Below are positions 15,782 through 52,306 of a stretch of 64,000 bases of DNA, one piece after another (positions within the stretch are counted from its first letter, which is position 1; each line of letters begins with the position of its first letter). The notes under the pieces are model-generated. The model searched no databases, was not told where the DNA came from, and was given only the letters and a program-made list of their open reading frames with translations. Location: positions 67,697 through 131,696 of the forward strand of contig CAVZVH010000001.1 in NCBI GenBank assembly GCA_963778645.1, in the 5' to 3' direction. This stretch comes from an uncultured Chloroflexia bacterium (GTDB lineage: Bacteria; Chloroflexota; Limnocylindria; Limnocylindrales; CSP1-4). A program made the position numbers and the translations under genes.

Positions 15782-15791
15782 TGTCTAGACA
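15782..15791. promoter_or_regulatory. GntR/HutC-type operator TGTCTAGACA overlapping the -35 (TAGACA) of the leaderless deoC promoter
   Basis: Perfect palindrome matching the HutC-subfamily GTnTAnAC consensus. TAGACA 15786-15791, 17-nt spacer, CATCAT 15809-15814, ATG 15821. Confidence 0.7.
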
Positions 15792-15820
15792 TTTGCGGTC
15801 GCGCCTGCCATCATCGGGCC

Positions 15821-16531
15821 ATGGACGCCCTGACGATCGAAGACCTGACGTACGAGCGGGTCGCCAAGACCATCGACCACTCGCTGCTGCGACCGGAGCT
15901 GACGCTCGACGACGTCATGGAAGGCTGCGCGATCGCGGCTCGCTACGAGGTCGCGTCGGTGTGTGCGCGTCCGACCGATGTCCGGACGTGCCGAGACCTC
16001 CTGGCCGGGTCGGGCGTCGTCGTGGGGACCGTCATCGGCTTCCCGCACGGGGCGCACGCGACCGAGACCAAGGTCTTCGAGGCGGAACGGGCGACTGCCG
16101 ACGGCGCCGTCGAACTCGACATGGTCATCAACATCGGCTGGCTTCGCTCGGGTGAGGACGACCGCGTGGAAGCCGACATCCGATCCGTGACCGAGGCGGC
16201 TCACGCCGGCGGGGCCATCGTCAAGGTCATCCTCGAGAACGCCTACCTGACGAAGGACGAGATCGTGCGTGGCTGCCAGGCGGTCGAACGCGCCGGCGCC
16301 GAGTACGTCAAGACCTCCACCGGGTTCGCGCCATCGGGGGCCACGCTCGATGACCTGCGCCTGATGCGAGCCAGCGTCTCGCCGAGCGTCAAGGTCAAGG
16401 CTGCCGGCGGCGTCCGGACGCTCGATGCGCTCATCGAGGTCATGAACGCGGGCGCTGACCGCTGTGGGGCGACCCGCACGGCCGAGATGCTCGACGAGTT
16501 CCGCGCCCGCAAGACCGCCGCGGCCGGCTGA
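15821..16531 (+). CDS. deoC: Deoxyribose-phosphate aldolase
   Basis: IDHSLL, GFPHG, ELDMVINIG, KVILE, YVKTSTGF and VKAAGGVR. Confidence 0.93.
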   Translation: MDALTIEDLTYERVAKTIDHSLLRPELTLDDVMEGCAIAARYEVASVCARPTDVRTCRDLLAGSGVVVGTVIGFPHGAHATETKVFEAERATADGAVELDMVINIGWLRSGEDDRVEADIRSVTEAAHAGGAIVKVILENAYLTKDEIVRGCQAVERAGAEYVKTSTGFAPSGATLDDLRLMRASVSPSVKVKAAGGVRTLDALIEVMNAGADRCGATRTAEMLDEFRARKTAAAG

Positions 16532-16550
16532 GCGGCCGGTCGTTCCAGGC

Positions 16551-17459
16551 CTAGACGCCCTCTGCGCCGGCCAGCGCCGCCCCGATCCCTCCGGCCAGCG
16601 GGCCGAGCTGCGCCAGCACGATCTCGATCCGCTCCGGCGGGAGCATCCGCGCATGCTCCATGACGTTGGCTCGCAGCGGCTCCAGGATGATGTTGCCAGC
16701 CGCGGCCATGCCGCCCCCGACGACCACCCGATCGGGGGCAAGGACGTTGACGATGTTGGCGATCGCGATCCCCAGGGCGCGGGTCGCCTGGTCCACGGCC
16801 GCGATGCAGCGCTCGTCGCCGGCCACAGCGCCCGCAAAGACTTCCTCCACCGTGGCCTTACCGGCCGCCGTCGTGATGGCCTTGGCCTGGGCCAGGGCTT
16901 CGGTGCAGCCACGATTGCCGCAGCCGCACATCGGCCCATCCTCGAGCACCGTCTGATGGCCGATCTCCCCAGCGGTGCCGGTGCCCAGGTGGAGCATGCC
17001 GTCGATGATCAGCCCACCGCCGATGCCCGTACCGAGCGTCACGAGCGCCATCGTCCGGGCGCCGCGGCCGGCGCCCATCCGCGACTCCGCGAGCGTGTGG
17101 GCTCGCGCGTCGTTGATGAACACGACCGGTCGGCCGAGGCCGTCCTCGAGGCGTGCCTTGAAGGGATAGCCGGTCCATGGTCCCGGGAAGTTGGGAAAGA
17201 GGCGGATCACGCCAGACTCCCGATCGAACAGGCCGGGTACGCCGATGCCGATCGTGGCGATGGGGCCGTGGGCCGCCACCGCCGCCAGCCCGGCCTCGAC
17301 CATGACCGCGACGACCCCATCGGGCCCGCGCTCGGCGTAGGTCGGCACGGTGTCGCGGGCCAGCAACACGGGCTCCTCGCCGCGGTCCGACCGCTCCAGG
17401 ACGGCCACCTTCAGGTTCGTCCCGCCGAGGTCCAGGCCCAGGTGCCGGCTCGCAGTCAC
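16551..17459 (-). CDS. ROK family sugar kinase
   Basis: GLDLGGTN, INDARA, LGTGIGGG, GEIGH and CGCGNRGCTE Zn motif; no HTH. Confidence 0.92.
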   Translation of the reverse strand: MTASRHLGLDLGGTNLKVAVLERSDRGEEPVLLARDTVPTYAERGPDGVVAVMVEAGLAAVAAHGPIATIGIGVPGLFDRESGVIRLFPNFPGPWTGYPFKARLEDGLGRPVVFINDARAHTLAESRMGAGRGARTMALVTLGTGIGGGLIIDGMLHLGTGTAGEIGHQTVLEDGPMCGCGNRGCTEALAQAKAITTAAGKATVEEVFAGAVAGDERCIAAVDQATRALGIAIANIVNVLAPDRVVVGGGMAAAGNIILEPLRANVMEHARMLPPERIEIVLAQLGPLAGGIGAALAGAEGV

Positions 17460-18193
17460 GACATCTCCGCGTGGTCGCCGCGCTGGAGCACGGCCTCGAA
17501 CTCGTAGCGTTCGGCGGCATAGAGGGTCTCGGTGTGTTCGATGGGGATGCCGTCCTGGTCGTCGATGGTCCGTCGCTCGCTGAGGACGACCCCGTCGGGA
17601 TCGAGGCCCAGCAGGCGTCGTTCGATGTCGGTCGCGAGCCGCGCGGAGACCCGTGCCTGGGCTCGGGTCGGGATGCGCCCGAGTCGCTCGAAGGCGTCGT
17701 GGAGCGAACCGCCGGCCAGGTCGTCATCGAGGATGCCGGCGCACGTCGGCGGGGCGACGACGCGCTCGATGGCCATGGGCAGGTCGTCGGCGAGGCGGAG
17801 TCGTTCGACGACGATGGCCCGACTGCCCACCGGCAGGTGGAGCGCGGCGCGGTCCTCGGGGCTCGGTTCGATCCAGCCCGTGTGGAGCATCCGCGACGAG
17901 GCCCGTCGACCCCGCCGACGCATGCTCTCGGTGAACGAGAGCGGCGATCCGAGGAGTCGCGCCACCACGCGCGGAGCCGTGAACGTGCCCTCGCCTCGAC
18001 GCCGCACGAGCAACCGCTCGTTGGCCAACAGCTGGACCGCCTGTCGGACCGTCATCCGGCTCACACCGAAGCGCTCGCAGAGCTCGGCTTCGGACGGCAG
18101 CCGATCGCCCGGTCGCGACGCCGCGACGAGGCGACGAAGGTAGTCGGCGATCTCCAGGTATCGCGGGGTCGTGGCGGCGGTCATCGTGTCCAT
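17456..18193 (-). CDS. GntR family transcriptional regulator, HutC/UTRA subfamily
   Basis: RLPSEAELCERFGVSRMTVRQA wHTH, RRGEGTF and a C-terminal UTRA domain. Confidence 0.93.
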   Translation of the reverse strand: MDTMTAATTPRYLEIADYLRRLVAASRPGDRLPSEAELCERFGVSRMTVRQAVQLLANERLLVRRRGEGTFTAPRVVARLLGSPLSFTESMRRRGRRASSRMLHTGWIEPSPEDRAALHLPVGSRAIVVERLRLADDLPMAIERVVAPPTCAGILDDDLAGGSLHDAFERLGRIPTRAQARVSARLATDIERRLLGLDPDGVVLSERRTIDDQDGIPIEHTETLYAAERYEFEAVLQRGDHAEMS

Positions 18194-18194
18194 G

Positions 18195-18224
18195 TTGACG
18201 GAGTCTTCGGGGCGTGCTTAGGAT
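18195..18224 (+). promoter_or_regulatory. Sigma70-type promoter for the SIS operon
   Basis: TTGACG (18195-18200), 18-nt spacer, TAGGAT (18219-18224); the operator lies at the predicted +1. Confidence 0.65.
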
Positions 18225-18230
18225 GGCACA

Positions 18231-18246
18231 CCTGTCTAGACATCTT
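18231..18246. promoter_or_regulatory. GntR/HutC-type operator (CCTGTCTAGACATCTT) between the divergent gntR and SIS genes
   Basis: Palindrome TGTCTAGACA at 18233-18242; these 16 bp are identical to 52290-52305. Confidence 0.75.
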
Positions 18247-18290
18247 GGGCGACCGCCCGAGGATCCCCTGGGCACCTCTGGAGGACGGTC

Positions 18291-19088
18291 TTGCCCATCG
18301 CCGGCGCGTGGCTCTCCGAGGCCCGAGCAGTCCTCGATCGGATCGAAGCCACCCAGATGCCCGCCATCGCGGAGACCGTGAGCCTCTGCGCACGAGCCAT
18401 CGGCGACGGTGGCCTCGTCCACCTCTTCGGGACAGGCCACTCGCGGATCCCGCTCGAGGAGATGTTCCCGCGGTACGGGTCCTACCCCGGATTCCATCCG
18501 ATCGCCGAGCTCTCGATGACGTTCCACACCCAGGTCGTCGGTGCGAACGGCCAGCGTCAGGCGATGTTCATCGAGCGAACCGAGGGCCTCGCCGAAGTGA
18601 TCCTGGCCAACTTCCAGTTCGGGCCGAGCGACGTGATGATGGTCTTCTCGGCGTCCGGGCTGACCGCCGTCCCGATCGAGATGGCGATGGGCGCGCGAGC
18701 CCGCGGCCTGGTGGTCGTGGCCGTCACCTCGGTCGCCCAGTCGATGGCCGGTGTGCCGGAGCACCCGACCGGCAGCCGCCTGCTGGACCAAGCGGACATC
18801 GTCATCGACCTGTGCACGCCGGCCGGCGACGCGCTTGTGCGCCTGGACGGCCTGGACACGCCGATCGGCCCGGGCTCCACGGTCGCCAACGCCGCGATCG
18901 TCAACGAGATCAAGGTGGGGACCGCGGCGATCCTCCTGCAGCGGGGAGCGCTGCCGCCGGTCCTCACGAGCGCCGCCGTGGTCGGACCGGAGCGCTCGAT
19001 CGAACTGTTCGAGGCGGCGTACCGGGAACACGCTCGCCGGGTCGCTCTGGCGCTCGCCGGGGCCGTGGCGCCAGCTGACGAGGCCTAG
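18291..19088 (+). CDS. SIS domain sugar isomerase-like protein (UPF0309 type)
   Basis: HLFGTGHS, FSASG, VAVTS, IDLCTPAGDA and GPGSTV match the SIS fold; TTG start preceded by GGAGG. Confidence 0.8.
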   Translation: MPIAGAWLSEARAVLDRIEATQMPAIAETVSLCARAIGDGGLVHLFGTGHSRIPLEEMFPRYGSYPGFHPIAELSMTFHTQVVGANGQRQAMFIERTEGLAEVILANFQFGPSDVMMVFSASGLTAVPIEMAMGARARGLVVVAVTSVAQSMAGVPEHPTGSRLLDQADIVIDLCTPAGDALVRLDGLDTPIGPGSTVANAAIVNEIKVGTAAILLQRGALPPVLTSAAVVGPERSIELFEAAYREHARRVALALAGAVAPADEA

Positions 19089-19163
19089 GCTCGTATCATC
19101 ATCGATCATCGATGACAGGCACGATCCGCAAGCGGACGTTCGGGACGCGATGGAGGACTCGCC

Positions 19164-20948
19164 GTGGCCGTGACAGAGGAGATCCTCGGCCAGTTCCTTG
19201 GAGACGACACGTTTCCGGTCGACTGGGACTCGGAGGTCGAGAAGGACTTCTTCTGGGTGTACGACGACCTGCACATCCCGCACCCGGTCAGCCCGATGTT
19301 CTTCGACATCGGTGGTTGGTGGCTCAGCTGCGACCACATGTTCCGCCGCTTCGGGACACCGTTCGCCGTCGACTGGCTGGCCAAGAACGTCAATGGCTAC
19401 GTGTACACGACCGCCATCCCGGCCGATCCGGACCTCCGGATCGAGGGAACCGAGTACAGCTCGCGCTACAGCGCGCGGGTGCCGCGCGACGCCACCTTCG
19501 CCGCCACGATGGGGGCGTATCTCGACGTGGTCCTGCCCGTCTACGGCCGGGACTTCGCCGACTGGTGGCGGGACCGCCTGCGGCCGGAGATGGAGCGCAA
19601 TTTCGCCTTCCTGGAGGCGCGCCTCGACGCCGCCGACGGCATGAGCCTGGCCGACGTGGCCTGCCTGCTCGAGGACGCTATCGACATCCACGATCGTCAC
19701 TGGAAGATCCACTGGATGCTGAACTTCGCCCAGCTGTCCGCGACGCTCCACCTGCGCGCCGTCATGGAGAAGATCCGCGGCACGGTCGACGAGGCGCTGC
19801 TGGGCCGCCTCCAGAACTCGGCATCGGACCGCAACTGGGACTCGATCGAGGCGCTGTGGCGGATGAAGAACGAGGTTCGCGATGATCACGAGCTGCGGGC
19901 GGCGTTCGCATCCGATGCCGCCGCCGAGATCGCCGCGTCGCTCCATGCGAGCGAGCGGGGCCGGCGGTTCATCGCCGAGGCGATCGGGCCGTATCAGCGC
20001 GAATTCGGATGGCATGCGGTCTGGAGCCACGAGTTCATCTTCCCGACGGTCCGCGAGCAGATGGAGCCGGTCCTCGAGCTCATCCGCGGGTACCTGGCCA
20101 GCGACTACGACTTTCCGAGCGCGATCGAGGCGATGCGGATCGACATCGCGGCCGCGTCCGAGGAGATCCTCGACGGGCTGACCGGCGATGCGCTCGAGGA
20201 GATGCGCGCGGCCAACGCCGTCAATCGCAGGATGGCGCCGCTGACGCCCGACCACCACTTCTACATCGACCAGGGCGCCAACGCCCACGTCCGCCTCGTC
20301 CTGCTCGAGGTCGGCCGCAAGCTCGTGGATGCCGGGCGCCTCGATGCGCCCGACGACGTGATGTTCCTTCGCTACAACGAGCTTCGGGGCCTGATCGGCA
20401 GCGCCGAATCGATCGACGCGCGGGCATTCGTCGCCAGCCGCCGCCTCGAGCGCCAGGCCGCCGCTCGCCGACATCCGCGCGACTGGGTCGGCACGGTCAC
20501 CCCATCGCAGCTCGCCTTCCCATACCTCGTCAATTGGGGGTACCCGGATCGCTTCCATCAGACGCAATCGGAGGATGTGCGCCTCATCACGGGGATCGGT
20601 GCGTCCCCGGGCATCGTCGAAGGCATCGCCCGGGTCGTGCGGACCGTCGACGAGTTCGACGAGGTCCGCGACGGCGACATCCTCGTGTGCCAGATGACCA
20701 ACCCGGCCTGGGTGGTCCTGTTCACCAAGATCGCCGGCCTGGTGACCGACACCGGGGGGACGACCTCGCATCCCGCCGTCCTCGCCCGTGAGTTCGGGAT
20801 CCCGGCGGTCATCGGCACATCCGTGGCGACCCAGCGGATCGCCACCGGCGACCGGTTGAGGATCGATGGCGCGGCAGGGCGGGTGGAGGTCATCGGCGAG
20901 GCGCCGGCCGGATCGACGGTCGTGTCGGCGACGGCGATCGGTCGCTGA
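19164..20948 (+). CDS. PEP-utilizing enzyme: substrate-binding domain plus phospho-His swivel, no ATP-grasp (phenylphosphate synthase alpha-like)
   Basis: C-terminal GIGASPGIVEGIARV...TDTGGTTSHPAVLAREFGIPAV phosphohistidine signature. N-terminal EKDFFWVYDDLHIPHP, VNGYVY and DHHFYID resemble PpsA-type proteins (recalled, not searched). Confidence 0.8.
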   Translation: MAVTEEILGQFLGDDTFPVDWDSEVEKDFFWVYDDLHIPHPVSPMFFDIGGWWLSCDHMFRRFGTPFAVDWLAKNVNGYVYTTAIPADPDLRIEGTEYSSRYSARVPRDATFAATMGAYLDVVLPVYGRDFADWWRDRLRPEMERNFAFLEARLDAADGMSLADVACLLEDAIDIHDRHWKIHWMLNFAQLSATLHLRAVMEKIRGTVDEALLGRLQNSASDRNWDSIEALWRMKNEVRDDHELRAAFASDAAAEIAASLHASERGRRFIAEAIGPYQREFGWHAVWSHEFIFPTVREQMEPVLELIRGYLASDYDFPSAIEAMRIDIAAASEEILDGLTGDALEEMRAANAVNRRMAPLTPDHHFYIDQGANAHVRLVLLEVGRKLVDAGRLDAPDDVMFLRYNELRGLIGSAESIDARAFVASRRLERQAAARRHPRDWVGTVTPSQLAFPYLVNWGYPDRFHQTQSEDVRLITGIGASPGIVEGIARVVRTVDEFDEVRDGDILVCQMTNPAWVVLFTKIAGLVTDTGGTTSHPAVLAREFGIPAVIGTSVATQRIATGDRLRIDGAAGRVEVIGEAPAGSTVVSATAIGR

Positions 20949-21006
20949 TATGCGCAGCCGCATCGTCCTGGTCGGCGTCGTCGATCAAGGGCCCTAGACC
21001 CGGCCG

Positions 21007-21879
21007 ATGCGAGCCTTCGCCTACGAGCGTCCGACCCGCCTTGAGGACGCGCTCGAACTGCTCGCCGAGCACGGCCCGGAGGCGAGCCTGCTTGCCGGTG
21101 GGACCGACCTGATCATCCGGCTTCGCGACGGGACGATCCGGCCGAGCGTGGTGGTCGATCTCAAGCGCGTCGCGGAGCTCGACGCGGAGATCGGCGACGC
21201 CGACGGCCATCTGCGGATCGGGGCTCGGACCGTGATGACCGACATCGCCGCGGACGAGCGCATCCGGCGGGACTACCCGGCCCTGGCCGAGGCGGCGTCG
21301 GTCGTGGGATCTGCCCAGATCCGGAACCGCGCGACGCTCGCCGGCAACATCTGCAATGCCTCCCCCGCGGCCGACACGGTTCCCGCGCTCCTGGTCTACG
21401 GCGCCCGGGTCGTCGCGACCGGCCCGGCGGGGACGCGGACGATCCCGATCGACGACGTCTTCGTCCGATCCGGTGTGACCACGCTCGGCCGCCGTGAGCT
21501 CCTTGTGGCCATCGAGCTGCCCGCCCCGACCGACCCACGGGGATCCGTCCATGTCCGACGTACCCGGCGTCGCGGTCACGACCTCGCCTCGGTCACGTTG
21601 ACCTGCGCCGTCCTGGCCGATGGGGTGACCACCTTGGCCTATGGCAGCCTCGGGCCCCGGCCGTTGCTGGTGGTCGACGAGACGGGTCTGCTCGCCGATC
21701 CAGCGGCTCCGGATCTCGCCAAGATGGCGCGGCTCGAAACGCTTTTCGTCGACGCCAGCCCGTCCGCGCGATCGATGCGGGCGAGCCCCGACTACCGCCT
21801 CGCGATGCTCCACGTCCTCGGGCTCCGGGCGGTCGGCATCGCCATCGAGCGACTCGCCCAGGCGACGGCCCCGCGATGA
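21007..21879 (+). CDS. Molybdenum hydroxylase FAD-binding subunit (CoxM/XdhB-like)
   Basis: LLAGGTDL, IRNRATLAGNICNASPAAD and RTRRRGHDLA. Confidence 0.92.
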   Translation: MRAFAYERPTRLEDALELLAEHGPEASLLAGGTDLIIRLRDGTIRPSVVVDLKRVAELDAEIGDADGHLRIGARTVMTDIAADERIRRDYPALAEAASVVGSAQIRNRATLAGNICNASPAADTVPALLVYGARVVATGPAGTRTIPIDDVFVRSGVTTLGRRELLVAIELPAPTDPRGSVHVRRTRRRGHDLASVTLTCAVLADGVTTLAYGSLGPRPLLVVDETGLLADPAAPDLAKMARLETLFVDASPSARSMRASPDYRLAMLHVLGLRAVGIAIERLAQATAPR

Positions 21880-22352
21880 CGACCACTCGCAGGATCGAAA
21901 CGACCGTGAACGGACAACGTCGCGCGATCGACGTCATCGCGCATCACACGCTTCTCGAGGTCCTCCGTGACGACCTCGGCCTGACCGGGACGAAGGAGTG
22001 CTGCCTGGTCGGCGAGTGCGGCGCCTGTACCGTGCTCGTCGATGGGGTCAGCGTGGACTCGTGCCTCATGCTCGCGGTCGAGGCCGACGGCGCGTCGGTC
22101 ACCACGGTCGAGGGTCTCGCCGGCGAGGACGGCCTGCACCCGCTTCAGCAGGCATTCCTCCGGACGGGTGCCGTCCAGTGCGGATTCTGCATCCCCGGTC
22201 AGCTCGTCTCGGCCCACGCCATGCTCGCGCTGATCCCACACCCGACCCGATCCGAGGTCGAGGAGGGCCTCGCCGGCAACCTGTGCCGATGCGCCGGGTA
22301 CGAGCAGATCATCGAAGCCGTCATGTCGGCGGCGGGAGACGAGGAGTCGTGA
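21876..22352 (+). CDS. Molybdenum hydroxylase 2Fe-2S subunit (CoxS-like)
   Basis: GTKECCLVGECGACTV, QCGFCIPG and GNLCRCAGY. Confidence 0.95.
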   Translation: MTTTRRIETTVNGQRRAIDVIAHHTLLEVLRDDLGLTGTKECCLVGECGACTVLVDGVSVDSCLMLAVEADGASVTTVEGLAGEDGLHPLQQAFLRTGAVQCGFCIPGQLVSAHAMLALIPHPTRSEVEEGLAGNLCRCAGYEQIIEAVMSAAGDEES

Positions 22353-42212: not shown

Positions 42213-43041
42213 ATGCGGCTCGCCACGATCGTCGGTCCGCATGGCCCCGGGGTGGGGATCGTCCGCGACGACCGTGTCCTCGAGCTCGAGCCGTTCGTCG
42301 ACATGCGCAGGTTCGCCATGACCCCCGACGGCATCGACTGGGCGCGCGACTGGGCCAGGTCCCGACCGAACAACGCCTGGTTGCCGCTCGCCGACGTGGC
42401 CCTCGGCCCGGCCGTGCCAGACCCGGGCGCGATCTACACCGTCGGCCTCAACTACGACGGCCCGGGTGCGGCCGGGCGCCCGGATGCGCCGCTCATCTAC
42501 GGCAAGGCGGCGAGCGCCGTCGCCGAGCATGGGGCGACGCTGTCGTGGGACCGGACACTGACCGCCAACGTGGACCCGGAGGTCGAGCTGGGCGTGGTCA
42601 TCGGCGCGACCGCCGCGAACGTCGGTGTCGAGGCCGCGATGGACCACGTCTTCGGCTTCACGTGCATGAACGACGTCTCGTCGCGCGACCCGTGGCTCGA
42701 CGGCGACCAGTGGCTTCTGGGCAAGTCGATGCCCGGCTTCTGCCCTGTCGGGCCGTGGATCGTCACCGCCGACGAGCTCGACCCGGCGGACCTGCGTCTC
42801 GGCTGCTCGATCGGTGGCGTCGCCATCCAGGACGGCACGACCGCGGACATGCGGTTCGCGAGTCGCCGAGATCGTGTCCTTCCTGAGTCATCACGCCACG
42901 CTGCGCCCCGGAGACCTGATCGCGACGGGGACCCCGACCCGCCTGGCCGCGCCCCTGGGACCGGACCGGCATCTCGAATCGGGCGACGTCGTGACGGTCT
43001 GGATCGAACGCATCGGGGAGCTCACCACCACCATCGCCTGA
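42213..43041 (+). CDS. Fumarylacetoacetate hydrolase family protein (apparent frameshift near 42860)
   Basis: VGLNY, DPEVELGVVIG, NDVSSRD, GKSMPGFCPVGP and LRPGDLIATGTP. Confidence 0.88.
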
Positions 43042-43062
43042 CCGCAGCCAGGAGGAGGCACC

Positions 43063-43851: not shown

Positions 43852-43867
43852 CGTCTCGCCGCCGTCG

Positions 43868-44998
43868 TCATGGCTCGGCCGCGAACCAGGCCCCGCCGCG
43901 CATGACCCGCTGGACCGAGAGATCGGCGTCGAGCTCCACGAGGTCGGCACGCTGGCCGACCGCGATCCGGCCACGATCGGTGACCCCGAGCAGGGCGAGC
44001 GGGTTGCGGCTCGCGGCCGCGACGGCCGCCGGCAGCGGGACGCCGGACGCCACGAGGTTCCTGACCGCGGTGTCGAGGGCGATGACGGATCCCGCCAGCG
44101 TGGACGTCCCGGCGAGGGTGACCCGCGCGCCCACGACCTCCACGTCCAGGTCGCCGATCCGCCCACGTCCCTCGCCGTTCCCGGCGAGCGCCAGCGCGTC
44201 GCTGACGAGCACGAGTCGGTCGACCGGCTTCAGCCGCGTGATGAGCGGCCACAGCGCGCGATCGACGTGGATCCCATCGGCGATGAGCTCGACGTAGACC
44301 GCGTCATCGAGCAGTGCGGCCACGGCGACGCCTGGGGCCCGATGGTCGACGCCGCTCATCGCGTTGAAGAGGTGCGTCGTGGAGGTCGCGCCGGCCTCGT
44401 ACCCGGCCCGCGCTTCCGCATCCGTGGCCGCCGAGTGGCCGATCGAGACCGCCGCCCCACGGTCGCGCAGCCAGCGGATGAGCTCGAGCGCGCCGGGAAG
44501 CTCGGGCGCGATGGTGACCAGCCGGAGTCCGTCGATGAGCGGCTCGAGGTCGGCGACCGGCACGTCACCCGGGACCAGGAGGTGGGCCGGATCATGTGCC
44601 CCGTGTCGTGCGGCGGCGAGGAACGGCCCCTCCAGGTTGAAGCCTAGCGGCTCGGCCCCGTTGGCCGGAGCGGCCGGCAGCCACTCCCGAACCATCTCTG
44701 CAAAGGCGACGAGCGACGGAAGGGGCGCGGTCACGGCGGTCGGCAGGAACGCGGTCACTCCCCGTCGCAGGAGGCTCCTGGCCATGCCGTCGAGCGCGGC
44801 CGGGTCGCCCATCGCGTCGTGGCCGCCCCAGCCGTGGACGTGCACGTCGACAAACCCGGGGCTGAGATATGGAGCGTCGGCGCCCGACTCCTCGTCGAGC
44901 TCGATCGCGGCGATCCACCCGCGTTCGATGGTGATGTGCCCGTCCACGACCCGATCGTCGAGGACCAGGCGACCGCGGACTGCCTTCCGCTCGGTCAT
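43868..44998 (-). CDS. nagA: N-acetylglucosamine-6-phosphate deacetylase
   Basis: PGFVDVHVHG, LEGPF, TIAPE, GHS, HLFNAM, ADGIH, SDA and LAGS. Confidence 0.88.
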   Translation of the reverse strand: MTERKAVRGRLVLDDRVVDGHITIERGWIAAIELDEESGADAPYLSPGFVDVHVHGWGGHDAMGDPAALDGMARSLLRRGVTAFLPTAVTAPLPSLVAFAEMVREWLPAAPANGAEPLGFNLEGPFLAAARHGAHDPAHLLVPGDVPVADLEPLIDGLRLVTIAPELPGALELIRWLRDRGAAVSIGHSAATDAEARAGYEAGATSTTHLFNAMSGVDHRAPGVAVAALLDDAVYVELIADGIHVDRALWPLITRLKPVDRLVLVSDALALAGNGEGRGRIGDLDVEVVGARVTLAGTSTLAGSVIALDTAVRNLVASGVPLPAAVAAASRNPLALLGVTDRGRIAVGQRADLVELDADLSVQRVMRGGAWFAAEP

Positions 44999-45014
44999 CG
45001 GGCGACCGTGACGG

Positions 45015-45092
45015 TCACGCGTCGCGTGCGCCGCTGCCGTCGAGGGCGAGACCGAGGTGGCGGCTGGTCGGCTCGCGGTCGATCGCGTCCAT
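45015..45092 (-). pseudogene. 25-codon mini-ORF, probable internally deleted ROK kinase remnant
   Basis: Manual translation MDAIDREPTSRHLGLALDGSGARDA*; TGATG-coupled to the permease; SRHLGL matches the start of the ROK kinase at 17459 (MTASRHLGLDLGG). Confidence 0.45.
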
Positions 45093-46078
45093 CAGGCTTC
45101 GCCGGTCACCCGAGCGTACAGCGCGGCGACGGCGACGATGATCGAGCCGAACAGCACCTGGCGCACGGCTTCGGGATACCCGAGTGCGGTGAGCAGCGCG
45201 CTGATGATCGTCAGGATCAGCGCCCCGACGATCGTCCCGCCAAGGCCGCCTCGTCCACCGAAGATCGACGTCCCGCCGATGACCGCCGCGGCGACCGACG
45301 GCAGGACTAGCGAATTGGCGAGCGTCACGCTGGCGACGTTCGTGAGTCCGGAGAGAAGGAACCCGGCCACGGCTGCCATCAAGGCCGACACCACGTAGAG
45401 GACGACCAGGACCTGCCAGCTGCGCGCGCCCGACAGGCGCGCCGCGACCGGGTTGTCGCCGATCGCGTACAGCATCCGGCCGTACCCGCTCCGACGTAGG
45501 GCGACAAGGATCAGCACGATGAGCGGCACGAACACGATGAAGCTGAACGGGAGCAGCAGGCCCAGTCGCTCCGAGCCGAGGGTACGAAGCTCGGGCGGGA
45601 CACCAGTCGAGCTCTGGACCATAAGGATCTGCCAGGCGTTGGCCAACCCGAGCACGACGAAGCTCACGCCCAGCGACATGATCAACGGATGGACCCGGAA
45701 GATGCCGACGCCGATCCCGGTCAGGAGGCCCGCCAGCGTGGCCGCCGCCAGGGCCACGAGCAGCCCGACCTCCAGTCCTGGGCCGCTCACCAGGGAGGCG
45801 ACCACGAATCCAGACATGGAGGCGACGGCGCCGACCGAGAGATCGATCCCGCCCGTCAGCATCGTCAGCGTCTGGCAGCCTGCGAGGATCGCGAGCGGGA
45901 CCGCTGCACGCAGCATGACGCCCGCCCAGTCCGCGCTGACGACACCCGGTCGGACGATCGCGTAGGCGCCGACCAGGAGTAGGAGGAGGACGGACAACGG
46001 GATGATCGGCCGCTCGCGCAAGAGGCGGCGCCAGGTCGTCGCGGTTCGCCAGTCAGGGGCACTGGTCACCGGAGTCAT
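45092..46078 (-). CDS. Monosaccharide ABC transporter permease (RbsC-like)
   Basis: GGIDLSVG, YAIGDNPVAARLSG and AAVIGGTSIFGGRG; start MTPVTS at 46078. Confidence 0.92.
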   Translation of the reverse strand: MTPVTSAPDWRTATTWRRLLRERPIIPLSVLLLLLVGAYAIVRPGVVSADWAGVMLRAAVPLAILAGCQTLTMLTGGIDLSVGAVASMSGFVVASLVSGPGLEVGLLVALAAATLAGLLTGIGVGIFRVHPLIMSLGVSFVVLGLANAWQILMVQSSTGVPPELRTLGSERLGLLLPFSFIVFVPLIVLILVALRRSGYGRMLYAIGDNPVAARLSGARSWQVLVVLYVVSALMAAVAGFLLSGLTNVASVTLANSLVLPSVAAAVIGGTSIFGGRGGLGGTIVGALILTIISALLTALGYPEAVRQVLFGSIIVAVAALYARVTGEA

Positions 46079-47079
46079 CGCCGACTCCGGCGCCATTGCA
46101 GAAGGCTGCCGAACATCACGACGCCGATCAGGATCAGGCCTTGGCTGACGAGGGAGAGGTTCGGGTCGAGGCTCATGAAGGCCATGTCGATCTGGACCAG
46201 CTGGAGGAGGAGCACGGCCACGATCGGGCCGAACACGCCGCCCCGACCACCTGCAAGGCTGACTCCACCGAGGACGACGGCGGCAACACTCATGAGGGTG
46301 TAGGGACCCGGGACCGGGTTCCCGATCCCGGTGCTCGCGGTGAGCGCGAGACCTGCGAAGGCCGAGAACAGGCCCGTCAAGGCGTAGGCGATGATCTTCG
46401 TCCGACCGACCGAGACGCCACTTCGGAAGGCCGCAAGCTGGTAGCTCCCGATGGCGTAGATCGAGAGTCCAAGCCGCGACCGTCGGAGCGGGATCCAGAT
46501 GACGGCCACGATCACGAGCAGGACGACCGTGGCCTTGGGGATCCAATCGACGCCGACCGACCCCAGGACCAGCTCCTTGAGCCACAGCGCGGAGCCGCCC
46601 GCTGGCGTCTTGAGGACCAGGAGCGCACTGCCGCCCCAGACGAACGCCATCGCCAGCGTGACCACGATGTCCGGGACCCGCGTGGCGACGATCAAGCTGC
46701 CGTTGATCGCGCCGAGCAGGAGTCCGAAGACCAGCGTGGCGAGCACGATGGCGACGGCGAACTCCTCGCTCTGGCCCTCCATGTTTGCCGCTGCGAACAC
46801 GCTCGTCAGGGCCATCATCGATCCGATCGAGAGATCGATGCCCCCAGCGATGACGCAGATCGCCTGGGCCACCGCCGCCAAGGCGAGCGGCAGCACCGAG
46901 ATGGCCAGGGCCTGGATCCCGGCGGCGCCGTAGTTCGAGTTGATCAGCCGGGTATAGATGAGCAAGAGCGCGAGGAGACCCAGGAGCGCCAGCGTCCAGC
47001 CGTTCCGGCGGACCCACGCGAGCAGCGCGACGGTCGGGCTGCTCCGGGTGTCGTCGAATGCGGGAGCCATCGCGCTCAT
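46075..47079 (-). CDS. Monosaccharide ABC transporter permease
   Basis: GGIDLSIG, YAIGS...AFRSG and AAVVLGGVSLAGGRG. Confidence 0.92.
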   Translation of the reverse strand: MSAMAPAFDDTRSSPTVALLAWVRRNGWTLALLGLLALLLIYTRLINSNYGAAGIQALAISVLPLALAAVAQAICVIAGGIDLSIGSMMALTSVFAAANMEGQSEEFAVAIVLATLVFGLLLGAINGSLIVATRVPDIVVTLAMAFVWGGSALLVLKTPAGGSALWLKELVLGSVGVDWIPKATVVLLVIVAVIWIPLRRSRLGLSIYAIGSYQLAAFRSGVSVGRTKIIAYALTGLFSAFAGLALTASTGIGNPVPGPYTLMSVAAVVLGGVSLAGGRGGVFGPIVAVLLLQLVQIDMAFMSLDPNLSLVSQGLILIGVVMFGSLLQWRRSRR

Positions 47080-48683
47080 CGGCCGTCCGCCGGCCGGCTG
47101 GGCGGTTGATGGGTGTCACCCGATGCCCCGGCAGCGTCGCTGGCGACCCCCGCCGCGACGACCTCCGCCGCCACTTCCTCGGGCATCGCCGCGTCGGATC
47201 GGAGGTTGTAGGCGGCGCGCAGCAATGTCGATTCGTCTGCGTCTGCGGCATCGACCTCGGCGACCACGCGACCTCCGAAGATCACGATCGTGCGGTCGCA
47301 CACGAGCTGCACCTCCTTGAGCTCTGAGGTGTACAGGAGGATCGCGGCTCCGGCACCGGCGAGGTCCCGGAGCAGGACGTAGATCTGCTGTTTCGTCCGG
47401 ATGTCGATGCCGCGCGTCGGGTCGAAACACAGCATCGTATGCACGCCGCCGGCGACCCAGCGCGCGATGGTCACCTTTTGCTGGTTGCCACCGGACAGCC
47501 GCCGTACTTCGCCCCCGGCCCGGGCGTCGATCTGCAGCTTCTCGACGGCGCCCTTCACCCGCTTGCGCTCCGCGCCAAGATCGATCAGGCCCCACTGGCG
47601 GATACGCGCGGTGACCGGGAGGGTGATGTTCTCGGTCACGGAGCGTTGCGGGAGCAGCGCTTCCGCCCGGTCGGCCGCGACGTAGACGATGCCGGCCCGG
47701 ATGGCATCCGCGGGATGGCGGAATGAGACGGGGGATCCGTCAGCGAACAGCTCGCCCCCGCTCGGTCGCTCGGACCCCGCCAGGATGTCGAACAGCTCGT
47801 CCTGCCCCTGCCCCTCGAGGGCGACGACACCGAGCACCTCGCCCGGGTACAGCTCGAACGACACGTCCTGCAGCTTCGTGTCGGAGCTGAGCGCCCGGGC
47901 CGACAGGCGCGGTGTGAGCCCGCTCGCTCGCTCGATCGGCGCTGCCCCGTCGCTCATGCGGGAGTGGAGCTCCTGGACGATCCGGCCGAGCATGAGCTCG
48001 ACGATCCGCTCTTCGGAGCCTTCATTCACGTCGACGACGCCGACGGTCTCGCCTTCTCGCAGGACAGTCGCGCGATCGCAGACCGCCGCGATCTCGATCA
48101 TGCGGTGCGAGATGAAGATCACGGATCGGTCCCCGCCGCGCTGCCGGCCGACCACCTCGAGGACCCGCTCGGTCAGGTTCGCTGGAAGCGCGGCCGTCAT
48201 CTCGTCGAGCATCAATACATCGGGCTCGATGGCGAGGGCGCGGGCGAGGTCGATGATTCGCAGCGAGGCGAGCGGCAGCTGCCTGGCCACAGACGATAGG
48301 TCGACATTCCCGAGGCCGAGCTCGTTGAGCCAGTGACGGAAGGGCTCGATCGGCGTGTCCGTGAGCCGCAGGTTCGAGCGGATGTCGAGGTCCGAGACGA
48401 GCGCCGGCTCCTGGTAGACGGAGACCAGGCCGCCCCGTCGGGCGTCGGCCGGCGAATGGACGGTGCGCTCTCGGCCGCGAACGAGGATACGGCCGCTGTC
48501 CGGCCGGACGTTGCCTGTGAGGATCTTGACCAGCGTGCTCTTGCCCGCGCCGTTGGCGCCCATGAGCGCGTGGACCTCGCCCGGGCGGACCGCCAGCGAC
48601 GCGGAACGGAGCGCGACCACCGCGCCGTACGACTTCGCGATGCCGGTCGCCTCGAGCAGGAGATCAGTGGCGGTCAGGGTCAT
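47076..48683 (-). CDS. Monosaccharide ABC transporter ATP-binding protein (RbsA-like, two domains)
   Basis: GANGAGKST, LDEMT, LSGGNQQK and DPTRGID. Confidence 0.93.
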   Translation of the reverse strand: MTLTATDLLLEATGIAKSYGAVVALRSASLAVRPGEVHALMGANGAGKSTLVKILTGNVRPDSGRILVRGRERTVHSPADARRGGLVSVYQEPALVSDLDIRSNLRLTDTPIEPFRHWLNELGLGNVDLSSVARQLPLASLRIIDLARALAIEPDVLMLDEMTAALPANLTERVLEVVGRQRGGDRSVIFISHRMIEIAAVCDRATVLREGETVGVVDVNEGSEERIVELMLGRIVQELHSRMSDGAAPIERASGLTPRLSARALSSDTKLQDVSFELYPGEVLGVVALEGQGQDELFDILAGSERPSGGELFADGSPVSFRHPADAIRAGIVYVAADRAEALLPQRSVTENITLPVTARIRQWGLIDLGAERKRVKGAVEKLQIDARAGGEVRRLSGGNQQKVTIARWVAGGVHTMLCFDPTRGIDIRTKQQIYVLLRDLAGAGAAILLYTSELKEVQLVCDRTIVIFGGRVVAEVDAADADESTLLRAAYNLRSDAAMPEEVAAEVVAAGVASDAAGASGDTHQPPSRPADGR

Positions 48684-48712
48684 CGGTCCCCGCGTCAATG
48701 CACCGGTGTGAG

Positions 48713-48745
48713 TCGAGGGATGCCGGCGGTGCCGGCATCCCTCGA
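48713..48745. terminator. Perfect 15-bp hairpin between the SBP and ATPase genes (partial terminator or mRNA stabiliser)
   Basis: tcgagggatgccggc - ggt - gccggcatccctcga. Confidence 0.7.
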
Positions 48746-48773
48746 AACGGACGACCGATTTTCGGGTCGGTGG

Positions 48774-49955
48774 TTACTCGCCTGGGCCCTTGCAGGCGAT
48801 GGCCTGCTCAGGCGTGTAGGTGGTCCATCCGTCGATCGTCACGCTCAGTGGCCAGAGCGGGTTGAGCCCCTCGACCTGCTGCCATGACGCCAATAGCGCC
48901 TTGCCCTCGTCGGTGATGTTGTCGGCCAGGACGGGCTTGAGCAGGACCGTATTGGGGTAGGGAGCCGAGGCATCGGCCTGGACGGTCTCGCCGCTCAGGA
49001 CCTTCAGCGCCAGGTTGACGCCCGCACCGCCGACGGCGGCCGTGTTTGTCACCGCTGCGCCCTGCAGGCCAGCATAGTTGGTGGCGTCACCCAGATAGTT
49101 GGCGAACGCACCGAGATCCGCACCGACGATCGGCTTGTACTCCTTGCCGGCTGCCTTCACGGCATCGACGACCTGTGAGTCCATGCCGGACGTCCAGATG
49201 CCGTTCACCGTGTCGTACTGGCCGCTCGAGATGAACTCGTTGGCCAGGTTCGTTGCGGTCGTTGGGTTCCAATCGGTATGGACGCCCTCGTTGTTCGGGA
49301 CGACTTCGATGCCCGGGGTCTCGGAAAGTGCCCGTTCGAAGCCGGTATGACGGTCGGTGTCGGCCGGATGGCCGGCGATACCACGCGTGTACCACACCTT
49401 GCCCGTGCCACCGATCTGGTCGAACAGCCACTTGGCTCCGAGGTACGCGTACTCCACCTGGTTGTTGTAGAACTTCCAGGTCTCCGGGTCCTCGACGTAC
49501 GCGTCGACGGCGACCATCAGGATGCCGGCCGCCTGGGCCTCGTCGATGGCCGCTTGAAGCGCGGTCGCGTGGCTTGGGTTGAAGACGATCGCGTCGGGGT
49601 CGTTGGCGATGAGCGTCCGCAGGTCCGCGAGCTGCTGCGCCGTGTCGGCGTCGCGCGCGATCATGTCGACCTTCGACACCTGGCCGGACGCCAGCGCCTC
49701 GGCCTTGGCCGTGCAGTTCTGCTCTTCTCGGAACCCGTTGCCGGTGCCACCGGTGTTCGAGAAGCCGATCGTGTACTGCGTGGCCGCGCTCGGGGCGGCA
49801 GACGATGCTGCCGCGCTTGGTGCCGCCGCGCTCGCGCTTGGTGCCGCGACGCTCGGCGCGGCGGATGATCCGCCACTGCTGCAGGCCACCGCGACCATCG
49901 CGACGGCTGTGAAGACCACGAGCCATTTGGCCCGGGTCGTGCCCTTTCCTGTCAT
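48774..49955 (-). CDS. Sugar ABC transporter substrate-binding lipoprotein (periplasmic binding protein type 1)
   Basis: AVAC lipobox, SAAAPS linker, IGFSN, DPDAIVFNP and VAVDA; GAGGAGGAG RBS before ATG 49955. Confidence 0.92.
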   Translation of the reverse strand: MTGKGTTRAKWLVVFTAVAMVAVACSSGGSSAAPSVAAPSASAAAPSAAASSAAPSAATQYTIGFSNTGGTGNGFREEQNCTAKAEALASGQVSKVDMIARDADTAQQLADLRTLIANDPDAIVFNPSHATALQAAIDEAQAAGILMVAVDAYVEDPETWKFYNNQVEYAYLGAKWLFDQIGGTGKVWYTRGIAGHPADTDRHTGFERALSETPGIEVVPNNEGVHTDWNPTTATNLANEFISSGQYDTVNGIWTSGMDSQVVDAVKAAGKEYKPIVGADLGAFANYLGDATNYAGLQGAAVTNTAAVGGAGVNLALKVLSGETVQADASAPYPNTVLLKPVLADNITDEGKALLASWQQVEGLNPLWPLSVTIDGWTTYTPEQAIACKGPGE

Positions 49956-50132
49956 GTGCACTCCTCCTCGAAAATGGCGCGCTCGTCGGCATCGCCGACG
50001 GGCTGTGCGCTCGCATGAACACTGCCCCGCTCACCGGGGTGTGTGCGTCGCATTATGTCGGGGTCACCTCCTCGCGTCCCTCGACCGTTCCATGATCCGT
50101 CGTGCGGATGCGGAAACGAGCCTTCGCCTCGG

Positions 50133-51047
50133 TCACTTGATGTATGGCCGCAGGACGTCGCGCGCGATCAGGAAGCCCTGCTTCACACGCTCGTCGGTGC
50201 CCTCGAACACGCGGTCTTCGTGCTCGATGATGATGTCGCCGTCGTAGCCGGTCCGATAGAGCGCCGAGAACAGGGCGCCCCATTCGACCTCGCCGAGACC
50301 CGGGATGCGGGGGATCTGCCAGCCGATCCCGGCCGACAGGATGCCGCGCTCGTACAACCCGTCACGGTCGATCATCAGGTCCTTGGCCTGCACGTGCAGG
50401 ATGTGCGGCCCGAACTCGCCGATGAAGCGGGGGATCTCGATCATCTGGAGGATGAGGTGGGACGGGTCGAAGTTGAGCCCGATCGTGCCGCCCCAGGTTT
50501 CGAGGATCCGGCGCCAGATGCGCGGGGTGGTGGCGAGGTTGTGGCCGCCCGGCCACTCGTCGTACGAGAACAGCATCGGGCAGTTCTCGAGGGTGATCTG
50601 GCGACCGTGATCCTGCGCGAAGGTGACGATGTCCGGCCAGACTCGGAGCGCCTCCGCCCAGTTGTCGTCCTGGTTCTTCGACCCGTCCGCGCCCATGAAC
50701 GTGTTGACGTATGAGACGCCCATCGCCTCGGCGGCTTGGATGACGCGCTTGAGGTGCCCGATGACCTCGGCCCGATGTTCCGGATCGGGGTGGAGCGGGT
50801 TCGGGTAGTAGCCCAGGCCGGAGATCGAGAGGCCCTTGGCCGTGATCGCATCGACGATCTCGGTGGCCTGACTCGCGGAGAGGTTCGCGACGTCGATGTG
50901 GGACGTGCCGGCATACCGTCGCGTCGTGCCGGTCGTGCGCGGCCAGCAGGCGATCTCGACGCTGTCGAATCCATTGGCCGCCGTCCAGTCGACGACGTCG
51001 CTGAGCGGGGTCTCGGGGAATGGGGCGGTCAGCAGGCCTAGCTTCAT
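50133..51047 (-). CDS. Sugar phosphate isomerase/epimerase (xylose-isomerase-like TIM barrel)
   Basis: VEIACWP, ITLENCP, GLNFDPSH, HVQAKD, PGLGEVEW and IIEHED. Confidence 0.88.
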   Translation of the reverse strand: MKLGLLTAPFPETPLSDVVDWTAANGFDSVEIACWPRTTGTTRRYAGTSHIDVANLSASQATEIVDAITAKGLSISGLGYYPNPLHPDPEHRAEVIGHLKRVIQAAEAMGVSYVNTFMGADGSKNQDDNWAEALRVWPDIVTFAQDHGRQITLENCPMLFSYDEWPGGHNLATTPRIWRRILETWGGTIGLNFDPSHLILQMIEIPRFIGEFGPHILHVQAKDLMIDRDGLYERGILSAGIGWQIPRIPGLGEVEWGALFSALYRTGYDGDIIIEHEDRVFEGTDERVKQGFLIARDVLRPYIK

Positions 51048-52246
51048 CGGGTTGGCGCCCCCAGCCCGGTCGCACCGACCGGAACGGGCTCGCGAACGAC
51101 GTCCACCCAGCGGCCGAGGCGGGCGCTCTCGGCCACGGCATCGTTGACGAGCATCTCGTCGTGGCCGTCCGCGAAGGTGGGATAGGCCGGTCGCGCGGCG
51201 GGTCGGCCGGCCGCGATATCGGCGTAGACCGCACGGAAGTGGGCGGCGAACGTGTCCCCGAACCCTTCGACGTGACCGCCCGGCAGCGCGGCGGCGGCTC
51301 GGCCGGCCGGACCCATGAGCGCCGGGTTCTTGATGAGGATCTCATTGGGCCGCTCGCGATGACCGATCCACAGTTGATCGGGTTGCTCCGAATCCCAGGC
51401 GACCGACGCCAGCGATCCGTCGACCTCGTACTGGAGCGAGTTCTTCCGCCCGGCGCTGATCTGGCTGATGCTCACCGCGCCACGGGCGCCGTTCTCGAAG
51501 CGGAGCAGGATCGTGGCGGTGTCCTCGGTCGCGATGTCGCGGGTGACCGTCTCGGTCGCGACCTCGGTGGAGTACGTCTCGACCGGGCCGGTCGGCTCGC
51601 GACGAGCCGCCACGAACGTGGCGAGCTCGGCCATGACCGCGGCGATGCGCTGCCCGGTGATGAAGCTGGTGAGGTCCAGCCAGTGCGACCCGATGTCGCC
51701 GACCGCGCGGAGCGCGCCGCCACGCTCGGGCTGCAGCCGCCAGTTCCAGTCCGACTCGAGCAGGAGCCAGTCCTGGAAGTAGCGTCCGGTCACCAGGCGG
51801 ACGTCGCCGATCTCGCCGGACGTCACGACCTCGTGCGCGTGCTGGTTCAGCGGGTAGTAGCGGATATTGAAGTTCGCGGCGTTCACGAGGCCGGTCGCGG
51901 CGGCGGCGGCCACGAGTTCCGCGGACTCCGTCGCCGACATCGCCAGCGGCTTCTCGCAGATGACGTGACGGCCGGCGGCCAGCACGGCCTTCGCCTGGGG
52001 CAGGTGGAGGTCGTTCGGGGAGGTCACGTGCACCGCGTCGACCGACGGATCGTCGAGGAGCTGGTCGAGGGACGGATAGGCGCGCGGCACGCCCAGCACC
52101 TCCGCCCGCGTCTCGCCACGCTCCGGCGTGCTGCCGAGGACACCGCGCACCTGGACGCCGATCCGGCGCAACGCCTCGACGTGGACGGTGCCGATGAAGC
52201 CGGTACCGATCACGGCAGCTCCGATGTCGGCGATGCTTCGCGTCAT
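51044..52246 (-). CDS. Gfo/Idh/MocA family NAD-dependent oxidoreductase
   Basis: VIGTGFIG, VHVTSPNDLH, HVICEKP and DIGSHWLD. Confidence 0.93.
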   Translation of the reverse strand: MTRSIADIGAAVIGTGFIGTVHVEALRRIGVQVRGVLGSTPERGETRAEVLGVPRAYPSLDQLLDDPSVDAVHVTSPNDLHLPQAKAVLAAGRHVICEKPLAMSATESAELVAAAAATGLVNAANFNIRYYPLNQHAHEVVTSGEIGDVRLVTGRYFQDWLLLESDWNWRLQPERGGALRAVGDIGSHWLDLTSFITGQRIAAVMAELATFVAARREPTGPVETYSTEVATETVTRDIATEDTATILLRFENGARGAVSISQISAGRKNSLQYEVDGSLASVAWDSEQPDQLWIGHRERPNEILIKNPALMGPAGRAAAALPGGHVEGFGDTFAAHFRAVYADIAAGRPAARPAYPTFADGHDEMLVNDAVAESARLGRWVDVVREPVPVGATGLGAPTR

Positions 52247-52289
52247 ACCCGGTCCACCACCTTGTCAGCGGCCTCCGCGTGCGATCGAG

Positions 52290-52306
52290 CCTGTCTAGAC
52301 ATCTTA
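52290..52306. promoter_or_regulatory. GntR/HutC-type operator adjoining the TAAGAT -10 of the minus-strand Gfo operon
   Basis: CCTGTCTAGACATCTT (52290-52305) is identical to 18231-18246; minus-strand TAAGAT at 52306-52301. Confidence 0.72.

Follow-up and report, generated by a model that had tools for sequence, protein, structure and literature searches.

The window analysed here, a stretch of 64,000 nucleotides from an uncultured Chloroflexia bacterium, carries three copies of the palindrome TGTCTAGACA that are most likely the operators of a single repressor, the HutC-subfamily GntR protein encoded at 17456-18193, at loci that comparison with related genomes would make fragments of one ancestral operon whose regulator was replaced. 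That operon would have encoded, behind a single operator, a Gfo-type oxidoreductase, a TIM-barrel enzyme, DeoC, a SIS protein, a sugar-binding protein, an ATP-binding cassette (ABC) ATPase, two permeases, a ROK kinase, GntR and NagA. The loci would encode one pathway because they descend from one operon.

In the proposed mechanism, a GntR dimer at each site would block RNA polymerase. The repressor would cover the -35 hexamer of the deoC promoter at site 1, sit at about +1 of the SIS gene just downstream of the divergent -10 hexamer of gntR-ROK kinase at site 2, and lie over the -10 hexamer and the start of the Gfo, TIM-barrel, ABC transporter and nagA operon at site 3. Since site 2 adjoins the gntR -10 hexamer, gntR is proposed to be autoregulated. 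If it works like NagR and DasR, the repressor would be freed when its UTRA domain binds a phosphorylated sugar, an intermediate that the ROK kinase probably makes. We infer GntR binding, repression, the effector and the substrate. An earlier note on this DNA had proposed one HutC-type GntR regulon comprising deoC, gntR-ROK kinase, SIS and the distant Gfo/isomerase/ABC/nagA operon. The genomic comparison supports this proposal, as the genes form a single operon in relatives, three sites recur in the split arrangement, the motif decays where gntR is missing, and it is found at orthologues in another phylum.

Copies of the palindrome and their promoter context

The 10-bp palindrome occurs at 15782-15791 (site 1), 18233-18242 (site 2) and 52292-52301 (site 3), where the earlier note had placed it, and all three copies are intergenic in a gene map built from codon-position GC and Pfam. 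A copy appeared in none of 100 dinucleotide-preserving shuffles of the window (0.00 copies). The exhaustive genome scan that the note had called for returned only these three exact copies, none of them coding, in the whole 4,023,255-bp assembly (42 contigs, 68.6% GC). Base composition predicts 0.84 copies genome-wide and a third-order Markov model 0.12, and the probability of at least three copies accordingly ranges from 0.05 to 0.0003. Three randomly placed positions would share a 36.5-kb span with a probability of about 2.5e-4.

The 8-mer core GTCTAGAC has nine copies in the assembly. With one mismatch allowed the core is not enriched in the window (18 observed against 19.5 expected), so that three strong sites stand without a halo of weak ones. 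Neither the DasR-type sequence GGTCTAGACC nor the dre consensus TGGTCTAGACCA, with GG at -5/-4, occurs in the assembly. A genome-wide scan with at most one mismatch gave 10 matches including the three real sites, and the other seven are not near sugar genes; one of them lies on contig C15 beside SCO1 and multicopper-oxidase genes, and others are in low-GC contigs. The best near-match outside the regulon, TGTCTAGACG at C26:489484 (9 of 10 bases), is in an 86-bp gap between a divergent HhH-GPD DNA-glycosylase-like gene and an RlpA/DPBB-like secreted-protein gene, with no obvious link to sugar metabolism.

A scan for sigma-70-like promoters across 15600-19300 found two against 0.1 expected, and both touch a palindrome. 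The predicted deoC promoter, TAGACA-17-(TG)CATCAT (15786-15814, plus strand), has its -35 hexamer inside site 1, and its tgccatcat block is conserved in genomes G020 and G019. Site 1 itself is in the same place in these two genomes, and the motif lies upstream of deoC in many Acidimicrobiia loci. The deoC ATG is 7 nt past the -10 hexamer, and this spacing suggests a leaderless or short-leader mRNA. The predicted SIS promoter, TTGACG-18-TAGGAT (18195-18224, plus strand), is conserved in G020, G017 and G019. Site 2 falls at about its +1 and directly downstream of an opposite-strand -10-like CAAGAT (18242-18247, minus strand), a putative gntR element whose nAnnAT pattern is retained in the same three genomes. 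Site 3 extends from about -7 to +3 of the putative promoter of the Gfo operon, overlapping a -10-like TAAGAT (52306-52301, minus strand) by one base. On the minus strand the -10-like hexamers of sites 2 and 3 each precede the palindrome with this one-base overlap. The 16 identical base pairs that the earlier note had seen at these two sites are confirmed as CCTGTCTAGACATCTT (18231-18246 and 52290-52305), and they are shared because the block consists of -10 hexamer plus operator, of gntR and of the Gfo operon, respectively. All three positions are as expected of a repressor, judged from these predicted promoters. The promoter positions given in the earlier note hold at sites 1 and 2, with scan-grade promoters, and in part at site 3, which abuts TAAGAT without a promoter of that grade.

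Operon organization in related genomes

The relatives compared are metagenome-assembled genomes (MAGs) labelled 'uncultured Chloroflexia' or Limnocylindrales. The exact 10-mer is present in 17 of 76 other genomes (60 of the genus and 16 of the sister family), all 17 belonging to the genus, with 1 to 4 copies per positive genome; the reversed control gave nearly none. Phylogenetic footprinting, also proposed in the earlier note, showed the motif to be kept upstream of orthologues: the exact form stands upstream of Gfo in 17 other genus genomes, and variants with the GTCTAGAC core do so in further ones. In single-copy genomes the one copy is the copy upstream of Gfo. Ten such layouts (G005, G010, G051, G066, G024, G015, G001, G044, G046 and G072) have the palindrome in front of a single operon with the gene order set out above for the ancestral operon. 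As the genes are contiguous behind one operator in these relatives, there is strong genomic evidence that the scattered genes of the window constitute one pathway under one regulator.

The split-type genomes G020, G017 and G019 have three sites with spacings of 2.4-2.5 kb and then 37-51 kb, like the window. In G020 and G019 the fetched sites lie in front of deoC, in the gntR-SIS gap and in front of Gfo. Those fetched from G017 are the gntR/SIS and Gfo sites, and its third copy is at the deoC spacing. The intergenic DNA flanking the sites has diverged among these genomes.

In single-operon relatives (loci L001, L004, L006 and L039-L048), the Gfo operator has the tandem form ATCTAGAC-TGTCTAGACA; its TCTAGA units, 9 bp apart, leave no room for two adjacent HutC dimers. 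The first unit is a possible second operator but doubles as a -10 hexamer (TAGACT or TAGAAT), and it has degenerated to TCTAAGA in the window.

A Gfo orthologue is present in 49 of 61 genomes, and co-loss was counted over those operons that are readable in full. Thirteen genomes combine an in-operon gntR with a GTCTAGAC core upstream of Gfo. In five genomes gntR has been deleted (G012 and G049, where the kinase now abuts nagA, and G060, G056 and G045), and in all five the motif is absent or decayed (TCTGGA/TCCAGA; forms such as catctggaccgtccagg and catccagatcgtctgga). The co-occurrence of motif and gntR has a Fisher p of 1.8e-4, counting the four split-type genomes, including the window, as gntR-positive and ignoring kinship.

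The proposed repressor and the probable regulator replacement

The GntR protein (245 aa) combines a winged helix-turn-helix (wHTH) domain (PF00392, 4.2e-18, residues 12-71) with a UTRA domain (PF07702, 2.8e-30, residues 94-231), and GTCTAGAC, of the GT-N-TA-N-AC type, lies 40 bp upstream of its gene. The nearest solved structures are NagR/YvoA (1e-35) and DasR (3e-27). In the NagR-DNA complex, Arg48 reads G-4, Arg38 reads G-5 and Gly69 anchors the wing (PMC4333415). The equivalents of Arg48 and Gly69, R46 and G67, are invariant in the alignment of GntR orthologues. The position of Arg38 is taken by a nearly invariant Ala36, and at operator position -5 a T replaces the G (TGTCTAGACA versus TGGTCTAGACCA). 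Ala36 matches the T at -5, a pairing that would be consistent with the HutC family, yet variant. The GntR type encoded within the operon of relatives has the same recognition helix, SRMT-R-A, and the same Ala at the Arg38 position; since helix and Ala are identical, it is plausible that both GntR types read the same operator.

A scan of GTDB genomes with the alignment of GntR homologues yielded 80 loci, 30 of them with 57-94% identity and mostly from Acidimicrobiia. The module common to the 30 loci is SDR-site-DeoC, ROK kinase-GntR, a second site, and SIS-(ROK regulator)-sugar-binding protein-ABC-permeases-(Gfo-TIM), where SDR is a short-chain dehydrogenase/reductase. The sequence TGTNTANACA occurs within 170 bp upstream of gntR in 28 of the 30 loci; it has 51 matches in 334 kb, mostly at gntR/SIS and deoC promoters and often flanked by AAA. 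In the Acidimicrobiia loci L068, L069, L075 and L083, two palindromes, TGTATAGACA and TGTCTAGACA, lie 16-24 bp apart upstream of gntR, an arrangement that suggests cooperative or double operators in that lineage.

The GntR of the window shares 43-46% identity with in-operon GntR proteins from its genus, against 57-68% with proteins of Acidimicrobiia. A maximum-likelihood tree places the split-type GntR clade (100/99) within an Acidimicrobiia-dominated clade (100/99) and the in-operon GntR in another clade (100/99) together with Anaerolineae and Thermoleophilia. Relatives have the ROK kinase and gntR between the second permease and nagA. At this place the window retains about 25 codons of the N-terminus of the in-operon kinase (45015-45092, minus strand), reading MDAIDREPTSRHLGLALDG before an early stop, which match the kinase N-terminus of G005, MDASDRPLSSRHLGLDLG, with the same overlap of permease stop and ATG as in G005. 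A HutC paralogue was sought at the end of the Gfo operon of the window, and only this kinase remnant is there. Because GntR belongs to an Acidimicrobiia-type clade and a remnant of the in-operon kinase persists, the native regulator was probably replaced by a foreign one and its operator retained.

In the proposed sequence of events, a foreign Acidimicrobiia-type module (deoC, kinase-gntR and SIS, with its own operators) would have been acquired, after which the redundant native copies of deoC-SIS and ROK kinase-gntR would have been deleted. The foreign GntR would hold the native Gfo operon through the retained operator, which is proposed to have been kept because the new repressor reads it. 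In single-operon relatives the phosphoenolpyruvate (PEP)-utiliser gene is located about 20-27 kb beyond nagA, and the creatininase gene stays beside nagA. The block at 19164-43851 of the window, which contains the PEP-utiliser/molybdenum (Mo) hydroxylase genes, other catabolic genes and the creatininase gene, is probably syntenic with these relatives. Given this synteny, it was probably the deoC/gntR/SIS module that inserted, next to the PEP-utiliser gene, and not the block that entered the regulon.

Alternatively, site 3 could be left over from the in-operon GntR that was deleted. Control by the present GntR would then be limited to sites 1 and 2, the Gfo operon would be constitutive or under the neighbouring ROK regulator alone, and there would be two regulons. 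The low identity of the present GntR to the in-operon type, its different clade and the deletion of the in-operon kinase-gntR pair fit such a history, but it is unlikely. Site 3 is perfect in every split-type genome, although Gfo identity drops to 76% and the flanks have diverged, and the motif decayed at similar divergence in genomes without gntR or a replacement. The recognition helix and the Ala at the Arg38 position are common to both GntR types, and the Acidimicrobiia-type GntR itself goes with TGTCTAGACA.

The neighbouring ROK regulator

Site 3 lies between Gfo and a divergent gene for a NagC/Mlc-like ROK transcription regulator (52471-53753, plus strand; Pfam ROK, with alignments to NagC and Mlc), which probably starts at the ATG at 52471, after a TATCAT -10 hexamer; the open-reading-frame start at 52350 is probably too far upstream. 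If this regulator, rather than GntR, bound the palindromes, its divergent position from the Gfo operon in most genus genomes and the presence of a ROK regulator gene inside the SIS-ABC operon of Acidimicrobiia would be accounted for. However, the motif decays after gntR loss despite a ROK regulator that is still adjacent in four of the five gntR-less genomes (G012, G049, G045 and G056), and conversely it is present upstream of Gfo at loci without an adjacent ROK regulator (L040, L041, L042, L044 and L045), as well as at gntR/SIS in fetched Acidimicrobiia stretches that lack a ROK regulator gene. The 10-mer also agrees with the HutC consensus and with a GntR-type operator already known, and the ROK regulator has a distinct conserved element of its own, all of which makes its binding to the palindromes very improbable.

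That element, the 26-bp sequence TACTTTGACATGTCGAGTGCAAAAGT (52403-52428, plus strand), lies beside the ROK regulator gene; some 25 bp separate it from the TATCAT hexamer and the probable start downstream, and it is distinct from the GntR operator. It occurs once in this genome, genomes of the genus keep it even after loss of the palindrome, and the NagC/Mlc-like regulator may bind it to control its own gene. The palindrome is lost together with gntR, is present without an adjacent ROK regulator, and differs from the ROK element; in these comparisons it follows gntR, not the ROK regulator.

That the palindromes are promoter look-alikes (TAGACA as a -35 hexamer) or chance survivors of CTAG-poor sequence is the least credible explanation. 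In its favour, about 0.8 copies in the genome are expected from base composition alone, part of the motif also serves as the -35 hexamer at site 1, and six other GTCTAGAC 8-mers likewise look mostly intergenic. Against it, the three copies cluster within 36.5 kb, occupy exact orthologous positions across about 20 genomes of two phyla, co-occur with gntR, and take differing promoter positions (-35, +1 and -10/+1), unlike a pure promoter element.

In favour of this GntR, the assembly has no further HutC protein with an SRMT-R recognition helix. Several observations weigh against the assignment of all three sites to it. With the assembly 82% complete, a second regulator may have gone unsampled. 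At site 3 the promoter scan gave no full promoter, only the -10-like hexamer. The tandem TCTAGA at Gfo in relatives means that a single dimer falls short of a full explanation. Shared ancestry makes the co-loss counts dependent on each other, since as few as two or three deletions may lie behind the five genomes without gntR. One genome, G042, has an in-operon gntR without the motif. G047 (L057/L062) encodes a 91% GntR orthologue and a ROK kinase divergent from ROK regulator-PTE, with no palindrome in the intervening DNA. G047 also has an intact single operon, complete with in-operon gntR and motif, and may represent an intermediate or rearranged state of the regulator replacement.

Comparison with known systems

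NagR (YvoA) of B. subtilis (PDB 2wv0, 4wwc; PMC4333415) resembles the present GntR in its wHTH and UTRA domains and its identical recognition helix, SRMTVRQA, with Arg48 and Gly69 conserved. Its dre operator has the same GTCTAGAC-type core and lies over promoters of amino-sugar genes including nagA. In contrast to NagR, the GntR described here has Ala in place of Arg38 and TGTCTAGACA, with T at -5, in place of TGGTCTAGACCA, with G. It is not an orthologue and reaches no NCBIfam equivalog. The genes concerned also differ: here Gfo, a TIM-barrel enzyme, deoxyribose-phosphate aldolase (DERA), a NagS-like SIS protein and an ABC transporter; for NagR, nagP/nagAB.

DasR of S. coelicolor (PDB 4zs8) is likewise a HutC repressor of amino-sugar genes, with a 16-bp palindrome centred on TCTAGA from which amino-sugar phosphates release it. 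DasR is global with many targets, whereas here there are three sites and no other convincing ones, and GGTCTAGACC is absent from the genome.

Reporter assays on truncated promoters support the BguR operator AAAAATGTCTAGACAAATTT, of which the palindrome TGTCTAGACA is the exact core; the palindrome is also similar to a predicted GmuR site (PMC3585215). BguR of S. pneumoniae (PMC3585215) is a local GntR-type repressor of one sugar operon, with its operator over the -35 hexamer as at site 1; the AAA flank of that operator is also seen on Acidimicrobiia sites. The BguR target is a beta-glucoside phosphotransferase-system operon with a single site, whereas a repressor of a different phylum, three promoters and a split ABC-transporter pathway are found here.

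NagS (SCO4393), an N-acetylglucosamine (GlcNAc)-6-phosphate dehydratase (PMC12680351; PDB 9eol), is the nearest solved relative of the SIS protein (2.5e-30), which likewise co-occurs with NagA, as in the NagS-NagA toxicity route. There is no dmdR1 linkage here, unlike for NagS, and the SIS protein belongs to a catabolic operon that also encodes a DERA-type aldolase.

The switch type, a HutC repressor on a GT-N-TA-N-AC palindrome, is already textbook knowledge; added interest comes from the history of the split operon, the replacement of the regulator and the uncharacterised amino-sugar pathway. Three sites and one regulator provide a testable regulon for an uncultured soil Chloroflexota lineage. 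About 15 genes without an assigned pathway role can be grouped as one functional unit because they form a single operon in relatives. The genus also offers two natural experiments, the decay of an operator after regulator loss and the retention of an operator under a foreign paralogue.

Genes of the two loci

Annotation by codon-position GC gene calling, Pfam and NCBIfam bears out the gene annotation of the earlier note. In the left locus, an SDR oxidoreductase gene (14538-15350, plus strand; Pfam adh_short_C2, 1e-51) lies upstream of deoC and is co-directional with it in nearly all related loci, and the order SDR-site-DeoC is kept in Acidimicrobiia. The SDR gene precedes site 1 and hence is probably not under the TGTCTAGACA operator. 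A 139-aa protein encoded between it and site 1 matches no family. The product of deoC (15821-16531, plus strand) belongs to the deoxyribose-phosphate aldolase family (Pfam DeoC; TIGR00126, 222.6 bits against an equivalog cut-off of 117.3). The ROK-family sugar kinase gene (16551-17459, minus strand; Pfam ROK, 1.6e-55) overlaps gntR (17456-18193, minus strand), the gene of the proposed repressor, by 4 bp and is co-transcribed with it; the kinase scores under every NCBIfam equivalog cut-off. Next is the gene of the SIS_2/UPF0309 protein (18291-19088, plus strand; Pfam SIS_2, 3.6e-40; NF002805, 270 bits), followed on its 3' side by the genes of a PEP-utiliser protein and then of a three-subunit molybdenum hydroxylase.

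The right locus, 34 kb away, is encoded on the minus strand. The first gene of its operon encodes the Gfo/Idh/MocA oxidoreductase (51044-52246; Pfam), for which the best NCBIfam match, levoglucosan dehydrogenase, is far under its cut-off. It is followed by genes for the xylose-isomerase-like TIM-barrel enzyme (50133-51047; Pfam AP_endonuc_2, 2.3e-31; weak PDB match to 2-hydroxy-3-keto-glucal hydratase, 8e-6), a sugar-binding protein (48774-49961; Peripla_BP_4, YtfQ/RbsB-like), an ABC ATPase with two ATP-binding cassettes (47076-48698; two stretches of Pfam ABC_tran) and two ABC permeases (45092-47079; BPD_transp_2 by Pfam and tblastn synteny). The last gene, beyond the kinase remnant, encodes a nagA-type N-acetyl-amino-sugar-6-phosphate deacetylase (43868-44998; TIGR00221, 240.3 bits against a cut-off of 225.65). 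The Gfo operon carries no nagB-type deaminase gene; UPF0309 SIS, DERA, Gfo and TIM-barrel proteins take that place across the regulon.

The molybdenum hydroxylase operon and pathway chemistry

The PEP-utiliser/Mo-hydroxylase operon, which the earlier note had counted in the regulon as the phosphotransferase/Mo operon, was rejected as a member and is an older, separate unit. Single-operon genomes have orthologous clusters, 81-86% identical, that stand alone: the 1.5 kb upstream of their PEP-utiliser gene contain no SIS gene, and the loci fetched lack GTCTAGAC. The gap between the SIS and PEP-utiliser genes is 1.4 kb in G019; SIS is convergent with nagA in L087, with nothing between them, and the Mo genes have the opposite orientation in L088. 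With 75 bp between the two genes in the window and no terminator found, read-through from SIS into the PEP-utiliser/Mo genes is possible in this genome. With the Mo operon separate, the aglycone hydroxylation that the note had included as a pathway step loses its basis.

The order of reactions proposed in that note is speculation. The SIS protein is a distant NagS/UPF0309 relative. Its similarity to SCO4393 is distant (109 bits), and its neighbour is gntR, not dmdR1. Distant NagS homologues from outside Streptomycetaceae, with about 30% identity, are reported to lack GlcNAc-6-phosphate dehydratase activity (PMC12680351), and the SIS protein falls outside NagS as delimited by a minimum of about 59% identity to the Streptomycetaceae protein and by divergent linkage to dmdR1. 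NCBIfam and PDB matches gave no substrate assignment: Gfo is nearest to levoglucosan and scyllo-inositol dehydrogenases, and the TIM-barrel enzyme weakly matches 3-keto-glucal hydratase, all below cut-off. The two enzymes weakly resemble those of an oxidation-elimination route. NagA, the ROK kinase, the NagC-like regulator and the NagR-like repressor, taken together as predicted functions, point to an N-acetyl amino sugar, a reading that leaves the DERA-type aldolase unexplained.

A tentative and broader reading, which is possible rather than probable, is that the operator marks an undescribed amino-sugar catabolic route in Limnocylindrales-like Chloroflexota and Acidimicrobiia, together with a foreign paralogous repressor taking over a native operator. 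On that same tentative footing, an imported N-acetyl amino sugar or glycoside might be oxidised and rearranged by Gfo and the TIM-barrel enzyme and then phosphorylated by the ROK kinase; processing by the NagS-like SIS lyase and NagA might follow, with cleavage by the DERA-type aldolase as the last step. The NagS-like SIS protein, NagA and the DERA-type aldolase may represent a catabolic counterpart of the recently described NagS reaction, and such a route would make productive use of chemistry that is toxic in Streptomyces.

As a minor observation on the assembly, contigs C30 (119.5 kb, 52.5% GC) and C15 (15.1 kb, 64.1% GC) deviate from the mean GC of 68.6%, and C30 is almost devoid of genes with high GC at third codon positions. 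Both contigs are probably contamination from MAG binning.

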